Sequence record: MK327931.1
From: Escherichia phage vB_EcoM_G17
Length of the DNA: 64,000 nt
Reading direction: 5' to 3' (one strand)
Position numbers and translations under genes: made by a program. Below the pieces are notes generated by a model. The model ran no database searches and was not told the DNA's origin. It worked only from the letters and a program-made list of their open reading frames with translations. Positions 44,669 to 64,000 of this stretch are shown here, piece by piece. Positions within the stretch are counted from its first letter, which is position 1; the number at the start of each line of letters is the position of its first letter.

Positions 44669-44737
44669 TACTTTTTTTATTAATAGTTTTCACCCCACCA
44701 GCAGATAGTTACTCACCGTTATTAACTATATATTTTA

Positions 44738-44830
44738 GATACACTCCTGCACCCAGTGGGCTAGTTTTTGTCTATGCGTATATAATAGCAAAGGGACTGA
44801 CCGGAGTCAATCCCTTTTTTTATTCTTTTT
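44738..44830. repeat. repeated intergenic element copy A with bidirectional terminator
   Basis: Motif GATACACTCCTGCACCCAGTGGGCTAG 44738-44764, then hairpin GGGACTGACCGGAGTCAATCCC 44793-44814 and T-run; recurs near 47485-47580, 50758-50840, 54042-54130. Confidence 0.6.
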
Positions 44831-57737: not shown

Positions 57738-57766
57738 CAAAAAAGCCCACTGTTTAAGGTGGGCTA
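57738..57766 (-). terminator. rho-independent terminator (duplicate of 57002-57030)
   Basis: Identical hairpin AGCCCACTGTTTAAGGTGGGCT 57744-57765 with A/U runs; after stop of 57783..58082. Confidence 0.7.
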
Positions 57767-58166: not shown

Positions 58167-58403
58167 TTATGATTTTTTATAAAACATTTCGGCAGTGATA
58201 TTTTTACCCGTTGGCTGTACTTTATCCAGAATTTTTTGATGCCCTGGCCGTCCAAATGAATATGATCCGTAAACCGTAAACCAGTAGTTACCCTCAGTGT
58301 TTACATGTACAGCACAATAGGGAACGCCCCGCGATTCATCACTAGTAAAGTGTGCTACCGTTCCCGTTACATTCGAAGTCGTTGATTTGATTTGTTCAAG
58401 CAT
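58167..58403 (-). CDS. hypothetical protein
   Basis: ORF track; AAGGAA SD. Confidence 0.65.
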   Translation of the reverse strand: MLEQIKSTTSNVTGTVAHFTSDESRGVPYCAVHVNTEGNYWFTVYGSYSFGRPGHQKILDKVQPTGKNITAEMFYKKS

Positions 58404-58423
58404 TTTCTTATTCCTTAGTTACC

Positions 58424-58477
58424 AGGGGAACCGCTCCCCTATGCAAAACATTATACGCGTTTAAAAACTAATAGCAA
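58424..58477 (-). promoter_or_regulatory. sigma70-like promoter + leader hairpin cassette
   Basis: -35 TTGCTA 58472-58477, 16-bp spacer, -10 TATAAT 58450-58455, hairpin AGGGGAACCGCTCCCCT 58424-58440. Confidence 0.55.
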
Positions 58478-58510
58478 GTATTTTAATAAAAAGTATTTGG
58501 AAAATAATTG

Positions 58511-58539
58511 TTGACAAGTGCATCCAGTACTGGCATAAT
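58511..58539 (+). promoter_or_regulatory. plus-strand sigma70-like promoter
   Basis: -35 TTGACA 58511-58516, 17-bp spacer with AGTACT, -10 CATAAT 58534-58539; opposite orientation to flanking genes. Confidence 0.5.
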
Positions 58540-58545
58540 TACTAC

Positions 58546-58653
58546 ATCAAGACGAAACAGTCACTAACCCACCGGGTGCATAGATCCGTCTATTAAATGA
58601 TTCAGTACTGAAAAAGTAACGGGGAGTTATTATCTCCCCGCGTTGTTATTTTG
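58546..58653 (+). ncRNA. candidate small RNA (promoter-to-terminator unit, about 105 nt)
   Basis: Starts about 7 nt after -10, contains motif AACCCACCGGGTGCATAG, ends at hairpin CGGGGAG-TTATTAT-CTCCCCG 58620-58640 plus U-rich tail; no ORF. Confidence 0.4.
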
Positions 58654-58867
58654 TAAGGTATAAACAGAAGTCACCTTTATTTGCTACGCCGCCAGTGTAA
58701 CGCGATGAATAGTTAGAAATATCTTGTACTTCTGCTATTACCAGTGTATCATCATTCATTTCGTCGCAGAAGCAAACGGCTGGATCTTTTACGCCGATAT
58801 TGTCGGCATGTTCCCGCATAGATTTAACCAGTGCTTCCAGTTGAGAAAGAGTAGTGATATTAGCCAT
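58646..58867 (-). CDS. hypothetical protein
   Basis: ORF track 58646..58897 trimmed to ATG (MANITTLSQ) with GAGGA SD. Confidence 0.6.
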   Translation of the reverse strand: MANITTLSQLEALVKSMREHADNIGVKDPAVCFCDEMNDDTLVIAEVQDISNYSSRYTGGVANKGDFCLYLTK

Positions 58868-58885
58868 TGTATTTTCCTCATTACC

Positions 58886-58945
58886 AGGGAGAACCATTTC
58901 TCCCCTCTATGTAAACTATTATACAGTACTGAAAACTAATTGCAA
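58886..58945 (-). promoter_or_regulatory. sigma70-like promoter + leader hairpin cassette
   Basis: -35 TTGCAA 58940-58945, 16-bp spacer, -10 TATAAT 58918-58923, hairpin about 58886-58906. Confidence 0.6.
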
Positions 58946-58953
58946 GTACTTTT

Positions 58954-59157
58954 TTAATTTAATTGCTTTAAAACATACTCAAAGACACCACGCACATCAT
59001 TGATCATCGCCTGGCGGTTAGCAGGTAACGCATCAGGATCGCCACTATCCCAGGCATTGATAAAACTCCCCAAATCATGATAGATTTTATTCTGTAAGCC
59101 GATTAACTGTAATTCTTTTTCTTCAAGCTCTTTGATGCGGTCGATTAAATCACTCAT
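58954..59157 (-). CDS. hypothetical protein
   Basis: ORF track 58954..59193 trimmed to ATG (MSDLIDRIK) with TGAGGATTATCTA SD. Confidence 0.55.
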   Translation of the reverse strand: MSDLIDRIKELEEKELQLIGLQNKIYHDLGSFINAWDSGDPDALPANRQAMINDVRGVFEYVLKQLN

Positions 59158-59174
59158 TAGATAATCCTCAGTAC

Positions 59175-59459
59175 TTAACTGTAAGATCCGCAACGGTCGC
59201 AGTAGTGCCCGTCCTCGTCATCGTCAACGAATTGACCGACGAAATGATCTACTTTCGCTTTCAGGTTATTATAATCGTTTTCTACTTCATTTAAACGCTT
59301 CTGGTAGTATTCCAGTGCTTTAAGATATGCCGCATCAGCAGTTTTCTCCTGCATAGCTAAATTCATGCCACGCGTTTCATCGTACAGCCAAAAACCATCG
59401 GTGCACTGGCTAATAGATAATGACTTGCTTAGTACTGTATAGTTAATTACTTTACCCAT
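59175..59459 (-). CDS. hypothetical protein
   Basis: ORF track; same SD sequence as downstream gene; C-terminal CDRCG. Confidence 0.65.
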   Translation of the reverse strand: MGKVINYTVLSKSLSISQCTDGFWLYDETRGMNLAMQEKTADAAYLKALEYYQKRLNEVENDYNNLKAKVDHFVGQFVDDDEDGHYCDRCGSYS

Positions 59460-59476
59460 TAGATAATCCTCAGTAA

Positions 59477-59537
59477 AGGCGGGAACTATTCCCCGCCTCG
59501 ATATAAAGTATTATACGTTAATCTAACTACAATGCAA
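59477..59537 (-). promoter_or_regulatory. sigma70-like promoter + leader hairpin cassette
   Basis: -35 TTGCAT 59532-59537, 16-bp spacer, -10 TATAAT 59510-59515, hairpin AGGCGGGAACTATTCCCCGCCT 59477-59498. Confidence 0.6.
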
Positions 59538-59551
59538 GTACTTTTTAAATT

Positions 59552-59818
59552 TTATAATCCTTTTACTGCATCAGGTGCGACTACTCCATCAATGTATTGA
59601 ACATCGTTTTCAACTTCACGGGCGGCATCATTCAGCAGATCAAAATTAAATTCCATTTCTTCCAGATCATCGAAATCAGGCTCATAACCATTAATTGTTG
59701 AATAAGTCCAAGTACCTTTTTCATAAGTTACGACACTTACATCAGGGAAGAAATCTTGCACATGATCCATCGCATCCCGAACCAATTGATGTGCAGTTGT
59801 GATATTTAAAGTTTTCAT
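59552..59818 (-). CDS. hypothetical protein
   Basis: ORF track. Confidence 0.65.
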   Translation of the reverse strand: MKTLNITTAHQLVRDAMDHVQDFFPDVSVVTYEKGTWTYSTINGYEPDFDDLEEMEFNFDLLNDAAREVENDVQYIDGVVAPDAVKGL

Positions 59819-59839
59819 TTTGTTGCCCTTTTAGTGTGA

Positions 59840-59899
59840 GCGGGGAACCACTCCCCGCCTCGATGTAAAGTATTATACGCTTTTAAACTTAGTTTGCAA
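59840..59899 (-). promoter_or_regulatory. sigma70-like promoter + leader hairpin cassette
   Basis: -35 TTGCAA 59894-59899, 16-bp spacer, -10 TATAAT 59872-59877, hairpin GCGGGGAACCACTCCCCGC 59840-59858. Confidence 0.6.
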
Positions 59900-59911
59900 G
59901 TACTTTTTAAA

Positions 59912-60523
59912 TTAATATGCGATTGATTCTACTACGTCATCAATAACATTGAATTGATATTCGTTACCCTCAATCAGTGCCGTAATGTTTTCAGTAGTGA
60001 ATTGATCCTCATATGCATTCTCTAAATCACGGTACAACTTGCGGGATAATTCACGAATAGTTTCAGTGAGTAGTTCCTCAAGCTCATTAACTAACGTTTC
60101 TTGTTTTGCGGTTAAATCAGTGTAAGCCGATTCAATGTACCCGCTTACAGTATTCTCATGCGAGTAGTGGGAGTGAGAACGCTTTACACTCATCGCCAAA
60201 TCATCTTCATTCAGCAGGTGACGGATTGAGCGATACTTAGTTAATGCTCTTACCTTGCGTAAAAACTTCACTGCGTCAACGTGGTCAGTACTGATTGATG
60301 CACCGTCACCCTGGGACCAAAAACCACTGAATTGTATTTCAGCTTCATTAATGCCATATTCCGGTAGTACTGTTTCTTTATAGTATTCAATTTCACTTTC
60401 AGAAAAATAATTGTCGTTTGAGTTTTTTTCACGTTCCCGAACCAGTTCGATAGCTGACGTTTTTTGTTCTGCGTTCAATTCAGAAAAATCCATAACGAAA
60501 GTAGTAGTAGTGATAGTTTTCAT
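59912..60523 (-). CDS. hypothetical protein
   Basis: ORF track; 203 aa; contains SGFWSQGDGAS; GAGGG SD. Confidence 0.7.
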   Translation of the reverse strand: MKTITTTTFVMDFSELNAEQKTSAIELVREREKNSNDNYFSESEIEYYKETVLPEYGINEAEIQFSGFWSQGDGASISTDHVDAVKFLRKVRALTKYRSIRHLLNEDDLAMSVKRSHSHYSHENTVSGYIESAYTDLTAKQETLVNELEELLTETIRELSRKLYRDLENAYEDQFTTENITALIEGNEYQFNVIDDVVESIAY

Positions 60524-60555
60524 TTTGTAACCCTCATTCAGTAGTTGATGTAAGT

Positions 60556-60583
60556 ATTATACGCTTTTAAAAACATTTGTCAA
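60556..60583 (-). promoter_or_regulatory. sigma70-like promoter
   Basis: -35 TTGACA 60578-60583, 16-bp spacer, -10 TATAAT 60556-60561. Confidence 0.55.
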
Positions 60584-60672
60584 ACTATTTTATCAGGGGA
60601 GTTTTTCGTGTGCCTTACTCCTGGGCTACTTAACGGGAAGTTACTTATTTCGTTCCCCGTCCTGATGTAAAA
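60584..60672 (-). other. conserved structured leader element, copy 2
   Basis: Homologous to 50596-50680, differing at a handful of positions; no ORF. Confidence 0.4.
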
Positions 60673-60673
60673 C

Positions 60674-60701
60674 ATTATACGCCTTTAAACATAGTTTGCA
60701 A
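60674..60701 (-). promoter_or_regulatory. sigma70-like promoter
   Basis: -35 TTGCAA 60696-60701, 16-bp spacer, -10 TATAAT 60674-60679. Confidence 0.5.
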
Positions 60702-60746
60702 GTACTTTTTAAAAATAGTTTTCAGTACTGAATATTTAAAAAAGTA

Positions 60747-60775
60747 TTGACAGCATTATCAAGTACTGGCATAAT
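60747..60775 (+). promoter_or_regulatory. plus-strand sigma70-like promoter
   Basis: -35 TTGACA 60747-60752, 17-bp spacer, -10 CATAAT 60770-60775; transcript would begin with AGCTAACCCACCGGGTGCAC motif. Confidence 0.45.
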
Positions 60776-60890
60776 ATACCCCATGACAACAGCTAACCCA
60801 CCGGGTGCACAATTGTAACTATACTAAACTACTTTTTCTATAGATACACTCCCGCACCCTATGGGCTACGGCTTATCTGCCAATGAATAC

Positions 60891-60919
60891 ATTATGCCAG
60901 TACTGACAAAATAAGTCAA
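60891..60919 (-). promoter_or_regulatory. minus-strand promoter convergent with plus promoter at 60747-60775
   Basis: -35 TTGACT 60914-60919, 17-bp spacer, -10 CATAAT 60891-60896. Confidence 0.4.
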
Positions 60920-60949
60920 TACCGGCAATTGTAAAGATTTGTAAACTGC

Positions 60950-61180
60950 TTATACTGCAATCGCGTCCAGGCTATAATAATAATAAGTGCCGTATTGGTG
61001 TACTTTATTACCTTTTATTTCAGTACTGAATGAATCCGAACGGTTTGCATATGATGTTAATTTAAAGTACTTTGATTTGCTGATACGTTGCCATACACCG
61101 CAGATCCGCTGTAAGTAAGTAGTTTTATTCGTGGTAGTATCTTTTACAGTTTTAACTTCAGTCATATACATATTAGTCAT
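60950..61180 (-). CDS. hypothetical protein
   Basis: ORF track; GGAG SD. Confidence 0.6.
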   Translation of the reverse strand: MTNMYMTEVKTVKDTTTNKTTYLQRICGVWQRISKSKYFKLTSYANRSDSFSTEIKGNKVHQYGTYYYYSLDAIAV

Positions 61181-61201
61181 TTTTATTACTCCAGGTTATA
61201 G

Positions 61202-61260
61202 GCGGGAAGAGTTCCCGCTCTCGATGTAAAACATTATACGCCATTAAACATAGTTTGCAA
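61202..61260 (-). promoter_or_regulatory. sigma70-like promoter + leader hairpin cassette
   Basis: -35 TTGCAA 61255-61260, 16-bp spacer, -10 TATAAT 61233-61238, hairpin GCGGGAA-GAG-TTCCCGC 61202-61218. Confidence 0.6.
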
Positions 61261-61267
61261 GTACTTT

Positions 61268-61534
61268 TTATTCAAGTACTGCAATCTTTTTAGTACGGTA
61301 CACGGTCACGCGGTTGCCCTTTCGGTCGAGCTTTATTTCTACCACTCGACGCGATACACTATCAGGACTTTTCAACGCCGCTAACCAGTACTGTAATGAT
61401 CTGGCGGTACTACGCTTTATAATGGCCCAACGTTTACCACGTTCCGATTGTACGCCCATATCTTTAAACGTTGCCCCGTCCTGGCGTGCGGCGATCCGAG
61501 CTTGTTCACGCGTCGCAAAATACTTAATATTCAT
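61268..61534 (-). CDS. hypothetical protein (paralog of 49086..49490)
   Basis: ORF track 61268..61570 trimmed to ATG (MNIKYFATREQAR) with AAGGG SD. Confidence 0.6.
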   Translation of the reverse strand: MNIKYFATREQARIAARQDGATFKDMGVQSERGKRWAIIKRSTARSLQYWLAALKSPDSVSRRVVEIKLDRKGNRVTVYRTKKIAVLE

Positions 61535-61575
61535 GCTGTTGCCCTTATCGTTGGTGTATGAATAAAACACTATTA

Positions 61576-61606
61576 TAAAGTACTATCGCAAAAAATGATA
61601 GTACTT
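61576..61606. promoter_or_regulatory. 11-bp inverted repeat AAAGTACTATC / GATAGTACTTT (candidate operator or attenuator)
   Basis: Perfect 11-bp arms separated by 9 bp, each containing AGTACT; sits where a -35 box would be expected upstream of 61268..61534. Confidence 0.35.
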
Positions 61607-61619
61607 TAAATAAATTCTA

Positions 61620-61859
61620 TTACATTCCAACCATTGCAGCACGGATCGCAGTAGTGCTATATTTGAATCCGTCCGGCGTTTTATCTTGTCCAGTCTGTTC
61701 TAAAAATAACATCATATGACGGGCCGCATCATTACGATTAGTATTGGCGGCAATAAAGTCCTGGGCCAACCGGTATAATGATTCATCGTTATTAATCCAA
61801 AGGCTTACATTCCAATGAGTTTTGTTTTTGTGACCTAAGAACATTTTTGATTTAGCCAT
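61620..61859 (-). CDS. hypothetical protein
   Basis: ORF track 61620..61898 trimmed to ATG (MAKSKMF) with AAGAGGA SD. Confidence 0.6.
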   Translation of the reverse strand: MAKSKMFLGHKNKTHWNVSLWINNDESLYRLAQDFIAANTNRNDAARHMMLFLEQTGQDKTPDGFKYSTTAIRAAMVGM

Positions 61860-61880
61860 TTTTTTAATCCTCTTATATAG

Positions 61881-61938
61881 TGGGGAACTATTCCCCACCT
61901 GATGTAAAACATTATACGCTTTTAAACATAGTTTGCAA
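61881..61938 (-). promoter_or_regulatory. sigma70-like promoter + leader hairpin cassette
   Basis: -35 TTGCAA 61933-61938, 16-bp spacer, -10 TATAAT 61911-61916, hairpin TGGGGAA-CTA-TTCCCCA 61881-61897. Confidence 0.6.
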
Positions 61939-61952
61939 GTACTTTATTAAAC

Positions 61953-62315
61953 TTATTCGTAAATTTTGCCACTGTCAGCCCATACCAGGAAACGAGGCAT
62001 ATTATCCCATGCATCTTGTTTTAAATTTAAACCGTGTAATACTTCTGTACTTTCCATTCCTGGTACTGGTTTACTATACACCGCGAAATTTTCGCCCATA
62101 TACTGATAAACCATCGTCAAATCACTGGCGATCATCTTATGGATCATCGCATCAAGCATCACGGTAGCGGCGTATTGTTCACGCTTAAGCGGCAACATTG
62201 TAATAAGTTCCCGATAAGCTGAAATGTGAATTTTTACCGTTTCAGCCGGAAGACCTTTCATCTCTTCACGGAAGTTGACCAGGTTAGAAATAATTTTATT
62301 GATTTGGGTCGCCAT
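61953..62315 (-). CDS. hypothetical protein
   Basis: ORF track 61953..62372 trimmed to ATG (MATQINKII). Confidence 0.6.
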   Translation of the reverse strand: MATQINKIISNLVNFREEMKGLPAETVKIHISAYRELITMLPLKREQYAATVMLDAMIHKMIASDLTMVYQYMGENFAVYSKPVPGMESTEVLHGLNLKQDAWDNMPRFLVWADSGKIYE

Positions 62316-62339
62316 CGTATTAATCTCTTTTAAAGTGTA

Positions 62340-62398
62340 GCGGGAAGTGTTCCCGCTCTCGATGTAAAACATTATACGCCTTTAAACATAGTTTGCAA
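62340..62398 (-). promoter_or_regulatory. sigma70-like promoter + leader hairpin cassette (first of the leftward small-gene cluster)
   Basis: -35 TTGCAA 62393-62398, 16-bp spacer, -10 TATAAT 62371-62376, hairpin GCGGGAA-GTG-TTCCCGC 62340-62357. Confidence 0.6.
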
Positions 62399-62634
62399 GT
62401 ACTTTCTACATGTACTTTTAAAATAGTTTTCTTTCTATATAGGGGAACTATCATTCAGTACTATTATTCAGTACTGAATCAACCAAATCACTACTACACC
62501 CCATAAAACGGCCTCAGACGCATTCTAACGCATTAATACACCTAAGCTATACATTTGCACCATTCCAATCATTCCAGGGCTTTACGGGCCGTTTAAACGC
62601 GTTAAATTATTTTCAATTATTTTGTTTTTAGCTA

Positions 62635-62662
62635 TTGACTCAGTACAGAAAAAGCGTATAAT
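62635..62662 (+). promoter_or_regulatory. plus-strand sigma70-like promoter
   Basis: -35 TTGACT 62635-62640, 16-bp spacer, -10 TATAAT 62657-62662. Confidence 0.45.
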
Positions 62663-62850
62663 TACTACATAGACGCGAGAAAGCGGAAACCCCAGAGGGT
62701 GCGGAATTACGCCCAAAATTCAAGATATAAAAAAAGGATACACTCCCGCACCCTAGCAGGTAAACGCACTTTCTCAGTACTGAAATATAGTACCATAGTC
62801 CGGCCCAGGATAGCAAGCAAATTAATTAAAACTTTTTTGCTTCCAGGGTA

Positions 62851-62878
62851 TTGCTTTATTTTTTCAGTACTGTATAAT
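62851..62878 (+). promoter_or_regulatory. plus-strand sigma70-like promoter
   Basis: -35 TTGCTT 62851-62856, 16-bp spacer with CAGTACTG, -10 TATAAT 62873-62878; followed by CATCAAG..AGCCCACCGGGTGCATAG. Confidence 0.45.
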
Positions 62879-63099
62879 AGTTCCATCAAGTCGAGAAAGA
62901 CTCAAGCCCACCGGGTGCATAGTTACGCCCAAAATTCAGTACTGAAAAAATTTTTAAAAATATCCGTCCAGGCCGTTGACATTGCCCCCAGTTTATAAGA
63001 TAATGATTCCAGATTCAGAAAAATCTAACTCCAGATACTGCGGGGAAACTATCCCCACGCGGTAGGGGAACTATTGGAAAAAACAAAATAAAATTTTGA

Positions 63100-63230
63100 T
63101 TTAGCCGTCTATACTTCCAGACGTGTAACCATCTAGCCGTTTAGCCGTCCAAACGTCTAGCCATCCAGAAATCTAGCCGTCTAGATGGATAGCCATCTTT
63201 ACTTCCAGACTTCTGGAGGGCTAGACATAT
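63100..63230. repeat. iteron-like cluster of short direct repeats (TCTAGCC / TAGCCGTC / TAGCCATC)
   Basis: At least 7 copies of CTAGCC-type units within about 130 bp of ORF-free DNA. Confidence 0.5.
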
Positions 63231-63635: not shown

Positions 63636-64000
63636 TAGCTTTCTTTCATTATTCAGTACTGATATTCTTGAGAACTACCCGACTACAAACATCATTATAT
63701 CCCACAAATCATAAACGTCCCAACGTAAATTTCAACTTTCGAAGATCCAACTTTTATTTCATAGGTACTCCAAAATTTTTAGGATCGAGATTTAGGATGG
63801 AGTACTAACCAACTTTTTGCTGGAGCCTCAAGGGGTAATTGAATTTTACCCCGAAGGGTAAAAGGGTAATTGTAATTAAGGTGAAAGTAATAATTCAGTA
63901 CTAATCATTGCGTGATTACTTTTGATTACATTTGATGTAATTTGCAAAATGGAAAAGGAGCTTGGAAACTACAAAGTACGGCAGACTTCCTCTGCCTACT

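Follow-up and report, generated by a model that had tools for sequence, protein, structure and literature searches.

The question raised by positions 58511–58653 of Escherichia phage vB_EcoM_G17 (sequence record MK327931.1) is whether a short segment directed against the surrounding genes encodes a non-coding RNA and, if so, what this RNA might do. The locus lies in a stretch of 64,000 nt, all of which was analyzed and which we refer to as the window. A preliminary description had proposed a rightward small-RNA unit consisting of a promoter (TTGACA-17-CATAAT), a motif, a hairpin and a U-rich tail, and we found all four in place, with no open reading frame (ORF) between promoter and hairpin. 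We further found that this unit (U1) carries a 48-nt RNA module with a covarying secondary structure, copies of which occur in related phages, either in the direction of the genes or against them. Judged from sequence comparison, the small-RNA reading of 58511–58653 is well supported.

Copies of the module, including those of phages RaK2, Muenster and fENko-Kae01, follow a common plan: a consensus promoter, a start at C/T-A-U, a first hairpin (hairpin 1), a linker of 3–5 nt, the invariant sequence CCCAYNGGGUGC, which forms hairpin 2, a purine-rich stretch and finally UCUAU. The stems of hairpin 1 vary from copy to copy (GAC/GUC, CGC/GCG, AGUC/GACU, UGAG/CUCA, AGC/GCU, GCC/GGC, UGGC/GCCA and others). 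We built a covariance model (R1) on 11 copies with a hand-made seed alignment, and found that all four pairs of hairpin 1 showed changes on both sides and that 94% of the cells were paired. When the 3΄ partner was slid by 1–3 columns, 27–53% of the cells were paired, and none of 500 shuffles matched the observed covariation. Matches from metagenomes, some contigs of which were common to the first set, gave the same numbers for hairpin 1. The closing pair of hairpin 2 alternates between A-U (51) and G-U (43), and a compensatory CCU/AGG change was found in three copies. As an Rfam-type test for a structured RNA asks, covarying secondary structure was present across many sequences.

The paired columns contained 62 G-U and no A-C combinations. 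Because each G-U pair corresponds to a C-A mismatch on the other strand, these counts indicate that folding occurs in the strand transcribed from the neighboring promoter, and hence that the element is not part of a leftward transcript. The alignments were fitted to the model, a caveat that is countered by the slid controls and the hand-made seed alignment. Three further structures appeared in subsets only and had no support in the column statistics: pairing of the loop of hairpin 1 (AGAUA) with UAUCU as a pseudoknot, an additional hairpin (AUAGA-UCCG-UCUAU) and a long-range AGACG/CGUCU pairing in the minimum-energy fold of U1. A mini-ORF or Shine–Dalgarno reading of GGAG/AUG in the 3΄ part was also rejected, its frame and start codon not being conserved, as were likenesses to the RfaH ops element, a CsrA site and a CRISPR repeat, in which essential bases mismatched in a check by eye.

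The U1 promoter agrees with the sigma70 consensus at 11 of 12 positions, and its spacer holds CCAGTACTGG with TGn. We predicted the transcription start from a C/T-A-T/A triplet that sits at the same distance from the -10 hexamer in every family member. The only ATG-started frame between the promoter and the hairpin comprises 4 codons, and no plus-strand ORF of at least 40 aa is present there. One could nevertheless argue that no plus-strand unit exists, in which case the hairpin would be a leftward terminator only, the promoter match would be due to chance, and the motif would act at the DNA level or form part of a leftward 3΄ untranslated region (UTR). Promoter-like hexamers are indeed common in this AT-rich window and only mildly enriched (74 sites compared with 48 expected), and the hairpin suits the leftward gene better. 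The significance of U1 therefore comes from the coupling of promoter and motif at a fixed distance rather than from the promoter match as such. In 110 of 110 distinct contexts, TTGAC(A/T)-17-(T/C)AT(A/T)AT preceded the module at a fixed distance, with hairpin 1 beginning ~3 nt into the RNA; AACCCACCGGGTGCATAG with up to 3 mismatches was matched 4 times in the window compared with 0.01 expected, a count that none of 100 shuffles equaled. In addition, both hexamers of U1 are unchanged in eight orthologues from two genera, and the G-U counts exclude folding of the opposite strand. These results contradict the 3΄-UTR-only alternative that the preliminary description had named, and we regard the absence of a plus-strand unit as scarcely credible.

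Conservation across genera is consistent with this conclusion. In distant BLAST comparisons, RaK2, K64-1 and a third related Klebsiella phage record matched the query from the -35 hexamer to the terminator only, Muenster and KP13-7 matched a shorter core within that span, and the flanking genes were no longer detectable. The unit retains ~73% identity in the other genus, and some relatives have insertions beside the locus, where the BLAST matches fall into two pieces. In the alignment of eight orthologues, the -35 and -10 hexamers, hairpin 2, UCUAU and AGUACUG are invariant, and the stems of hairpin 1 and of the terminator (GGGGATC/GATCCCC, GGGAGAC/GTCTCCC) change in a compensatory manner. The consensus fold of nine terminated copies likewise retains hairpin 2 and the terminator. 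Such cross-genus conservation indicates that U1 is not a relic promoter.

The terminator had been called canonical in the preliminary description, which holds for the GC-rich hairpin (a 7-bp stem with 6 GC pairs) and less clearly for the tail. The hairpin was detected on both strands. Its plus-strand tail is CGTTGTTATTTTG (58641–58653); on the minus strand, the same hairpin ends the leftward gene 58646–58897 with the tail TTACTTTTTC, and fits that strand better. In the U-tract test, the plus-strand tail CGUUGUUAUUUUG was interrupted and the minus-strand tail UUACUUUUUC was better, while the orthologues ranged from good (RaK2) to poor (121Q and Muenster). The A-run beside the palindrome TTCAGTACTGAA also provides the U-tract template of the leftward terminator. 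The sequence AGTACT occurs at this distance behind the module in most family copies. The proposal of a small non-coding RNA is thus strengthened by the cross-genus conservation, the covariation of the hairpins and the G-U asymmetry, and tempered by a terminator that is common to the convergent gene.

Several points weigh against our reading of U1. Hairpin 2 is near-invariant, so that its pairing is supported by few events, and the 3΄ part (the purine-rich stretch and UCUAU) showed no supported pairing by column statistics; conserved as it is, this part could be a DNA-level signal. The interrupted plus-strand U-tract suggests that rightward termination may be leaky. Structure prediction, which had been proposed as a check, supported the local hairpins only, the whole U1 RNA fold being not unusually stable (z = –1.64). 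The start site, 3΄ end and stability of the U1 RNA are predictions. Finally, the proteins encoded in the surrounding repeat (a DksA/TraR zinc finger, a ParE-like protein, a weak kinase match and domains of unknown function (DUFs)) included no identified binding factor. Coordinates of U1 and of the other copies are given in Table 1.

Table 1. Features of U1 and of the other module copies in the window
Feature	Position	Strand	Details
U1 promoter	58511–58539	+	-35 TTGACA 58511–58516, 17-bp spacer, -10 CATAAT 58534–58539
Predicted U1 transcription start (A)	58546	+	7 nt past -10
U1 48-nt RNA module	58547–58594	+	Covariance model R1, 61 bits, E = 3e-14
U1 hairpin 1	GAC 58551–58553 / GTC 58560–58562	+	Loop GAAACA; then linker ACTA
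U1 motif AACCCACCGGGTGCATAG	58566–58583	+	Core of the 48-nt module
U1 hairpin 2	ACCC 58567–58570 / GGGT 58574–58577	+	Loop ACC; then GC
U1 module 3΄ part	TCTAT 58589–58593	+	Purine-rich stretch, then TCTAT
Palindrome TTCAGTACTGAA	58601–58612	both	
Bidirectional intrinsic terminator	58620–58653	both	Stem CGGGGAG/CTCCCCG 58620–58640, loop TTATTAT
Ordinary leftward early promoter	58450–58477	–	TTGCTA-16-TATAAT; promoter of gene 58167–58403; back-to-back with U1 promoter
U2	60747–60823	+	TTGACA-17-CATAAT, short-form module 60787–60823; 28.5 bits
Convergent partner of U2	60839–60919	–	TTGACT-17-CATAAT 60919–60891, module 60885–60839; 45.2 bits
U3	62635–62717	+	TTGACT-16-TATAAT; module start 62670; hairpin CGC-GAGAAA-GCG; 4-nt-loop variant CCCCAGAGGG; 24.9 bits
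U4	62851–62933	+	TTGCTT-16-TATAAT; module start 62886, AGTC-GAGAAA-GACT; 48.8 bits
Leader-type copy	54038–54126	–	Module start 54085; -35 TTGACT inside terminator-like hairpin, then TATTAT, module; 58.8 bits
Leader-type copy	50755–50838	–	Module start 50797; short-form hairpin 1; architecture as 54038–54126; 37.2 bits
Leader-type copy	47481–47570	–	Module start 47528; architecture as 54038–54126; 59.8 bits
Leader-type copy, innermost in terminal repeat	44734–44818	–	Module start 44776; architecture as 54038–54126; 34.1 bits

The position of U1 in the genome was determined by comparison with relatives. Asteriusvirus genomes (121Q, PBECO4, SP27 and Sharanji), i.e. ~350-kb jumbo coliphages within the RaK2-like group, are 88–99.5% identical to the window region. 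Phage vB_Ec-M-J has an annotated direct terminal repeat (DTR) of 21,525 bp, and its position 1 aligns with position 64000 of the window, which places the end of the window at the physical left end of the genome; the DTR spans ~43,330–64,000. The DTR genes are small, uncharacterized and all leftward, so that they point away from this end, and are individually equipped with promoters. At the repeat boundary (~43,300), spaced genes with a GC content of 0.36–0.40 give way to overlapping or packed genes with a GC content of 0.29–0.35. The outward-reading gene order suggests that the ~20-kb DTR enters the cell first. An additional idea, that the outward promoters drive genes over the repeat junction, was rejected because the genes there face the opposite way.

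The covariance model found nine copies in the window (44.7–62.9 kb), all in the DTR, with no further match below E = 1 and none in the 43 kb of the window outside the DTR. The preliminary description had treated the motif as a mark of rightward units. Four copies are rightward, and the additional plus-strand promoters it listed (those of U2, U3 and U4) are real; five of the nine copies, however, are leftward, co-directional with the genes and without a terminator, and form 5΄ leaders ahead of ordinary early promoters. Nor is U2 the free-standing unit it had been taken for. The copy at 60839–60919 is co-directional with gene 59912–60523, and its module is separated from that of U2 by 15 nt; U2 is thus half of a convergent promoter pair, and its RNA is antisense to a leader. 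Convergent pairs were also found in related phage loci, most of them with the same 15-nt gap. U3 faces a degenerate inverted copy at ~62735–62760, and U4 has no terminator downstream and heads toward the genome end. Behind the copy at 54038–54126 lie an ordinary early promoter and gene 53577–53918.

Some additional features of these copies were observed. The sequence TAC(G/A)CCCAAAAT occurs four times on the plus strand (62708, 62924, 63232 and 63258), twice as the 3΄ part of the U3 and U4 modules and twice standing alone in the terminal non-coding region; the stand-alone occurrences suggest that the 3΄ part of the variant modules is possibly a DNA-level repeat. A fifth rightward promoter (TTGACA-17-GATAAT, 62976–63004, plus strand), pointing toward the terminal non-coding region, lacks the module and is followed by a GGGGAAACTATCCCC hairpin that resembles those of early leaders. 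In the minus-strand hairpins at 54126–54099, 50838–50811, ~47570–47545 and ~44818–44793, the stem holds the -35 hexamer of the next promoter (AAAGGGATTGACTCCGGTCAGTCCCTTTGCTATTATAT). These hairpins recur every ~3.3 kb and split the repeat into transcription blocks, and the same design was observed in other genera with a UUCG loop.

Beyond the window, a pattern search of IMG/VR with 9-N spacing followed by the covariance model yielded 126 matches (103 distinct) in 121Q, RaK2, Muenster, GAP32, CBB, fENko-Kae01, Munch and uncultured contigs of 355–366 kb. Metagenome contigs provided 64 further matches, and RaK2-like phages and metagenomes together hold >150 distinct copies. In a complete 352-kb relative, all nine matches fell inside one 19-kb stretch. 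We classified each copy by its orientation relative to the dominant coding strand around it, and found 66–67 copies co-directional with the genes and 37 against them. A terminator was present behind 18 of the 37 anti-directional copies, typically 24–25 nt past the module, compared with 4 of 66 co-directional copies, all four of which were spurious on inspection. Most of the remaining anti-directional copies face a convergent copy, most often 15 nt off. Downstream of the co-directional copies lies either an ordinary early promoter (AGTACTTGCA-N16-GTATAAT) or, immediately adjacent, a ribosome-binding site. The -35 hexamer is embedded in the terminator hairpin of the upstream gene in 33 of 67 co-directional copies (those at 44.8, 47.6, 50.8 and 54.1 kb of the window included) and in none of the 37 anti-directional copies, U1 among them; AGTACTG adjoins the -10 hexamer in 17/37 and 8/67 of the anti-directional and co-directional copies, respectively. 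Because the two contexts differ in these features, they represent separate long-lived lineages rather than recent mutual inversions. As far as the sequences tell, anti-gene copies are stand-alone RNAs and with-gene copies are mRNA leaders.

In three uncultured relatives (L050, 12601–13200; L060; L073, 2058–2660), a short-form module directly precedes the ribosome-binding site of a conserved protein of 178 aa, MPGQFRSKAGATLAGHSDKW..., which has no Pfam match. This was the sole case of the module as an immediate 5΄ UTR.

We propose, with about an even chance of being right, that U1 is an early non-coding RNA gene of ~95–107 nt, whose module is a factor-binding 5΄ domain that the outward copies provide in trans. 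Under this hypothesis, host RNA polymerase would transcribe U1 early from the sigma70-consensus promoter through the 5΄ module to the bidirectional terminator common to the convergent gene. The invariant hairpin 2 would be the recognition site for a conserved factor, which might be the polymerase itself or a protein of host or early phage origin. The leader copies would place this site on the 5΄ ends of early mRNAs, and from outward terminated copies such as U1 the domain would become available in trans, acting as an effector or titrator. The lack of a defined 3΄ end in the leader copies suggests that the functional part is the 5΄ module and that the 3΄ end is unimportant. Similarly, an invariant 12-nt hairpin beside a hairpin of free sequence points to recognition by a factor rather than to base pairing.

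The module could instead belong to a mobile early-promoter cassette resembling the promoter-early stem-loops (PeSLs), in which the hairpins would be only 5΄ stabilizers and the outward copies neutralized recombination by-products without function. PeSLs of T4-like phages (Arbiol 2010; Comeau 2014) are repeated intergenic elements consisting of a stem-loop terminator and a near-consensus sigma70 early promoter, are located in plastic regions of small unknown genes, and drive gene shuffling as composite terminator/promoter cassettes (PMC4122927). The leader-type copies (e.g. 54091–54126) have the same composite form, with the -35 hexamer inside the terminator hairpin in half of the co-directional copies; hairpin 1 begins only ~3 nt into the RNA, a position also seen in known 5΄ stabilizers, and copies recur at ~3.3-kb spacing with similar flanks. 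Unlike in PeSLs, however, the -35 hexamer is within the stem, and a conserved covarying transcribed module, which is not in the PeSL description, is present; moreover, the U1 promoter has no stem-loop and the family is confined to the terminal repeat. U1 was kept across genera in its promoter, compensatory stems and terminator distance while the flanks diverged, the anti-directional copies have their own promoter subtype and none of them an embedded -35 hexamer, which argues against recent inversion of leaders, and a simple stabilizer would not need an invariant 12-nt sequence. We consider this possibility unlikely.

The promoter-proximal location of the module, right behind terminators, raises the question of whether the nascent two-hairpin RNA remains bound to polymerase, by itself or together with a phage protein, and acts in cis to make it termination-resistant so that it crosses the terminators within the repeat and reaches the genes past the repeat, which are tightly packed and lack intergenic promoters. 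In lambda nut (boxA/boxB) and HK022 put, promoter-proximal RNA hairpins are recognized by a factor or by polymerase, not by base pairing. The purine-rich hairpin 1 loops of the module (GAGAAA, GCGAAA and GAAACA) are similar, and we take them to be reminiscent of boxB loops, a point counted for antitermination. An invariant G, a pyrimidine 9 nt on and then a purine also approximate an elemental pause at hairpin-pause distance, although the signal is weak. Terminators placed specifically behind the outward copies would be useless for antitermination, however, and convergent pairs would make no sense. The module has no boxA-like consensus or conserved single-stranded block and no sequence similarity to these sites, and its stems, of only 3–5 bp, are far shorter than those of put. 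We tested 56 small ORFs at 42.4–62.4 kb (minus strand, mostly in the DTR), and found no N-, Q- or NusG-like protein among them; the domain matches in this set, which were not tied to individual ORFs, were to a zinc finger of the DksA/TraR type (E = 1e-11), to a ParE-like toxin domain (E = 5e-11), weakly to a protein kinase and to several DUFs. Nor did the proteins encoded in the repeat and beside U1 yield an RNA-binding or antitermination candidate in Pfam and PHROGs searches. Antitermination in cis is thus quite unlikely.

Base pairing was considered as well, since an antisense U1 RNA could pair with the 3΄ end of the 58646–58897 mRNA upon read-through, which a plus-strand terminator that looks leaky by sequence might permit, or with leaders bearing the reverse complement of the module. 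U1 has a perfect 17-nt complement, TGCACCCGGTGGGTTAG, in the leader read from the promoter at 60919; U1, U2 and U4 have CCCACCGGGTGCA in common; and U2 and the minus-strand copy form convergent promoters ~100 bp apart with fully complementary RNAs. The U2/60919 pair, but not U1, resembles in this respect the convergent overlapping promoter pairs P22 Pant/Psar and coliphage 186 pR/pL, which are also strong and face to face; it differs in that the same module stands in both arms, inverted and at a constant distance of 15 nt. The invariant block, however, lies in a hairpin stem and is not a single-stranded seed of the type used by Hfq-dependent small RNAs, and the leader copies could not act by pairing. 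The search for targets complementary to the motif, which the preliminary description had suggested, was unproductive: the only core complements scored in the window were the minus-strand family members themselves, and a BLAST search of U1 against 5,426 E. coli genomes, which cannot detect short seeds, gave no match. Orthologues retain the structure and share no target-complementary stretch. An essential terminator with a long U tail, as in Hfq-type RNAs, was not found either, two thirds of the family (the leader copies) having no terminator. An antisense role is, in our judgment, very doubtful.

The location of the family raises one more possibility, namely that U1 is a primer or R-loop transcript for replication or end processing, as at T4 oriF/oriG and the T7 origins. 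Copies occur only in the terminal repeat, with the four outward ones within 5.5 kb of the physical end, an AT-rich stretch lies behind the module, and the final 1.7 kb before the genome end is gene-free, repeat-filled and rich in CAGTACTG. Nine copies in both orientations, most of them reading into genes, are nevertheless not origin-like; the cumulative GC skew shows no switch, and no initiator or iteron association was found at U1. Such a role is highly improbable.

A bolder version of the factor-binding hypothesis is that the module is a new early RNA effector, a short 5΄ domain made by host polymerase from the DNA that enters the cell first, which would capture a host or phage factor such as polymerase, an RNase or a defense protein; this is conceivable and should be regarded as tentative. 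The leaders would then reprogram or protect early transcription of the 350-kb genome, and free outward decoy RNAs would set the availability of the factor, forming an RNA-based takeover or anti-defense circuit. If true, the circuit would be specific to the terminal repeats of RaK2-like jumbo phages.

The module is previously undescribed, with no counterpart in Rfam, the searchable literature or the scanned bacterial genomes. When 100,044 species genomes of bacteria and archaea were scanned with a pattern, only four chance matches in unrelated taxa (≤17 bits) appeared, and thus no host homologue or mimic of this sequence was found. No Rfam family matched anywhere in the window at the gathering score; at E ≤ 10, within 58400–63100, the copies were overlapped only by two weak minus-strand matches near 60714–60818 (13.6–17 bits, far below the gathering score). 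Full-text literature searches for the motif as a word returned unrelated primers only, and the module is absent from the published accounts of CBB, phAPEC6, fEgEco12 and fENko-Kae01 and from a 2026 jumbo-phage review.

Among known phage RNAs, the 77-nt oop RNA of lambda pairs as an antisense RNA with cII, and the 6S transcript from lambda PR΄ serves as the substrate on which Q antitermination acts. U1 is like both in having a strong host-polymerase promoter, a short (~70–200 nt) non-coding RNA and an intrinsic terminator, and in lying against or ahead of genes; neither of the two, however, is multi-copy or shares a module with mRNA leaders. In the RaK2-related Pseudomonas jumbo phage PA5oct, two non-coding RNAs of 236 and 451 nt (ncRNA001 and ncRNA002) in the long terminal repeat were found by RNA-seq to be abundant from early infection on (PMC7318152). 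The module, for which they are a precedent, resembles them in its terminal-repeat location and predicted early timing; they have no described promoter or structure and no sequence relation to it, and no covariance-model match was found in the initial 40 kb of the PA5oct record, which includes the 39,080-bp repeat. The family belongs to none of the systems compared and falls under phage early non-coding RNAs or leader motifs.

RaK2-like jumbo phages are candidates for phage therapy in which >80% of the genes and the entire early regulation are uncharacterized. The present result provides a testable element: a 48-nt consensus, >150 natural variants, a rule relating orientation to context and a location in the DTR. 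Should the RNA prove to bind a factor, it would reveal how these phages seize the host during the first minutes and would constitute a new family of RNA regulators in phages. Were the module a mere 5΄ stabilizer, it would still define classes of promoters and blocks of transcription in the early region, and it offers compact strong-promoter and RNA-tag parts for engineering.

We also made several observations on the DNA of the early region. The palindrome AGTACT occurs 251 times in the window compared with 21 expected, and CAGTACTG 63 times compared with 0.6. In a 350-kb relative (L078–L084), AGTACT is by far the most enriched 6-bp palindrome (913 vs 119 expected), with a density of 56–69 per 10 kb in the terminal repeat compared with ~20 elsewhere. 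It adjoins the -35 (AGTACTTGCA) and -10 (CAGTACTGTATAAT) hexamers of early promoters, is present inside genes too, and is probably the site of a DNA-binding factor. The same relative lacks CCATGG, AGGCCT and AGCGCT (~32 expected for each) as well as CCCGGG, CCGCGG and CGCGCG, a pattern that looks like restriction-site avoidance.

At 63100–63200, inside the gene-free terminal 1.7 kb and ~850 bp from the genome end, ~12 units with strict 8-bp periodicity (TCTAGCCG, TTTAGCCG, TCCAAACG and similar) form an array that may serve in packaging, end recognition or replication. Neither tRNA nor tmRNA genes were found in the window. A second repeated cassette, made up of the ordinary early promoter and its leader, is present at 18 minus-strand sites between 44251 and 62403; it consists of AGTACTTGCA-N16-(G)TATAAT-GTTTTACAT, then a hairpin at the 5΄ end (e.g. 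GGGGAG-N4-TCCCC) and a ribosome-binding site, and may represent a second conserved family of leader RNAs. Finally, identical terminators (AGCCCACCTTAAACAGTGGGCT plus a T-run) were observed on the minus strand at 57765–57744 and 57029–57008, 736 bp apart.

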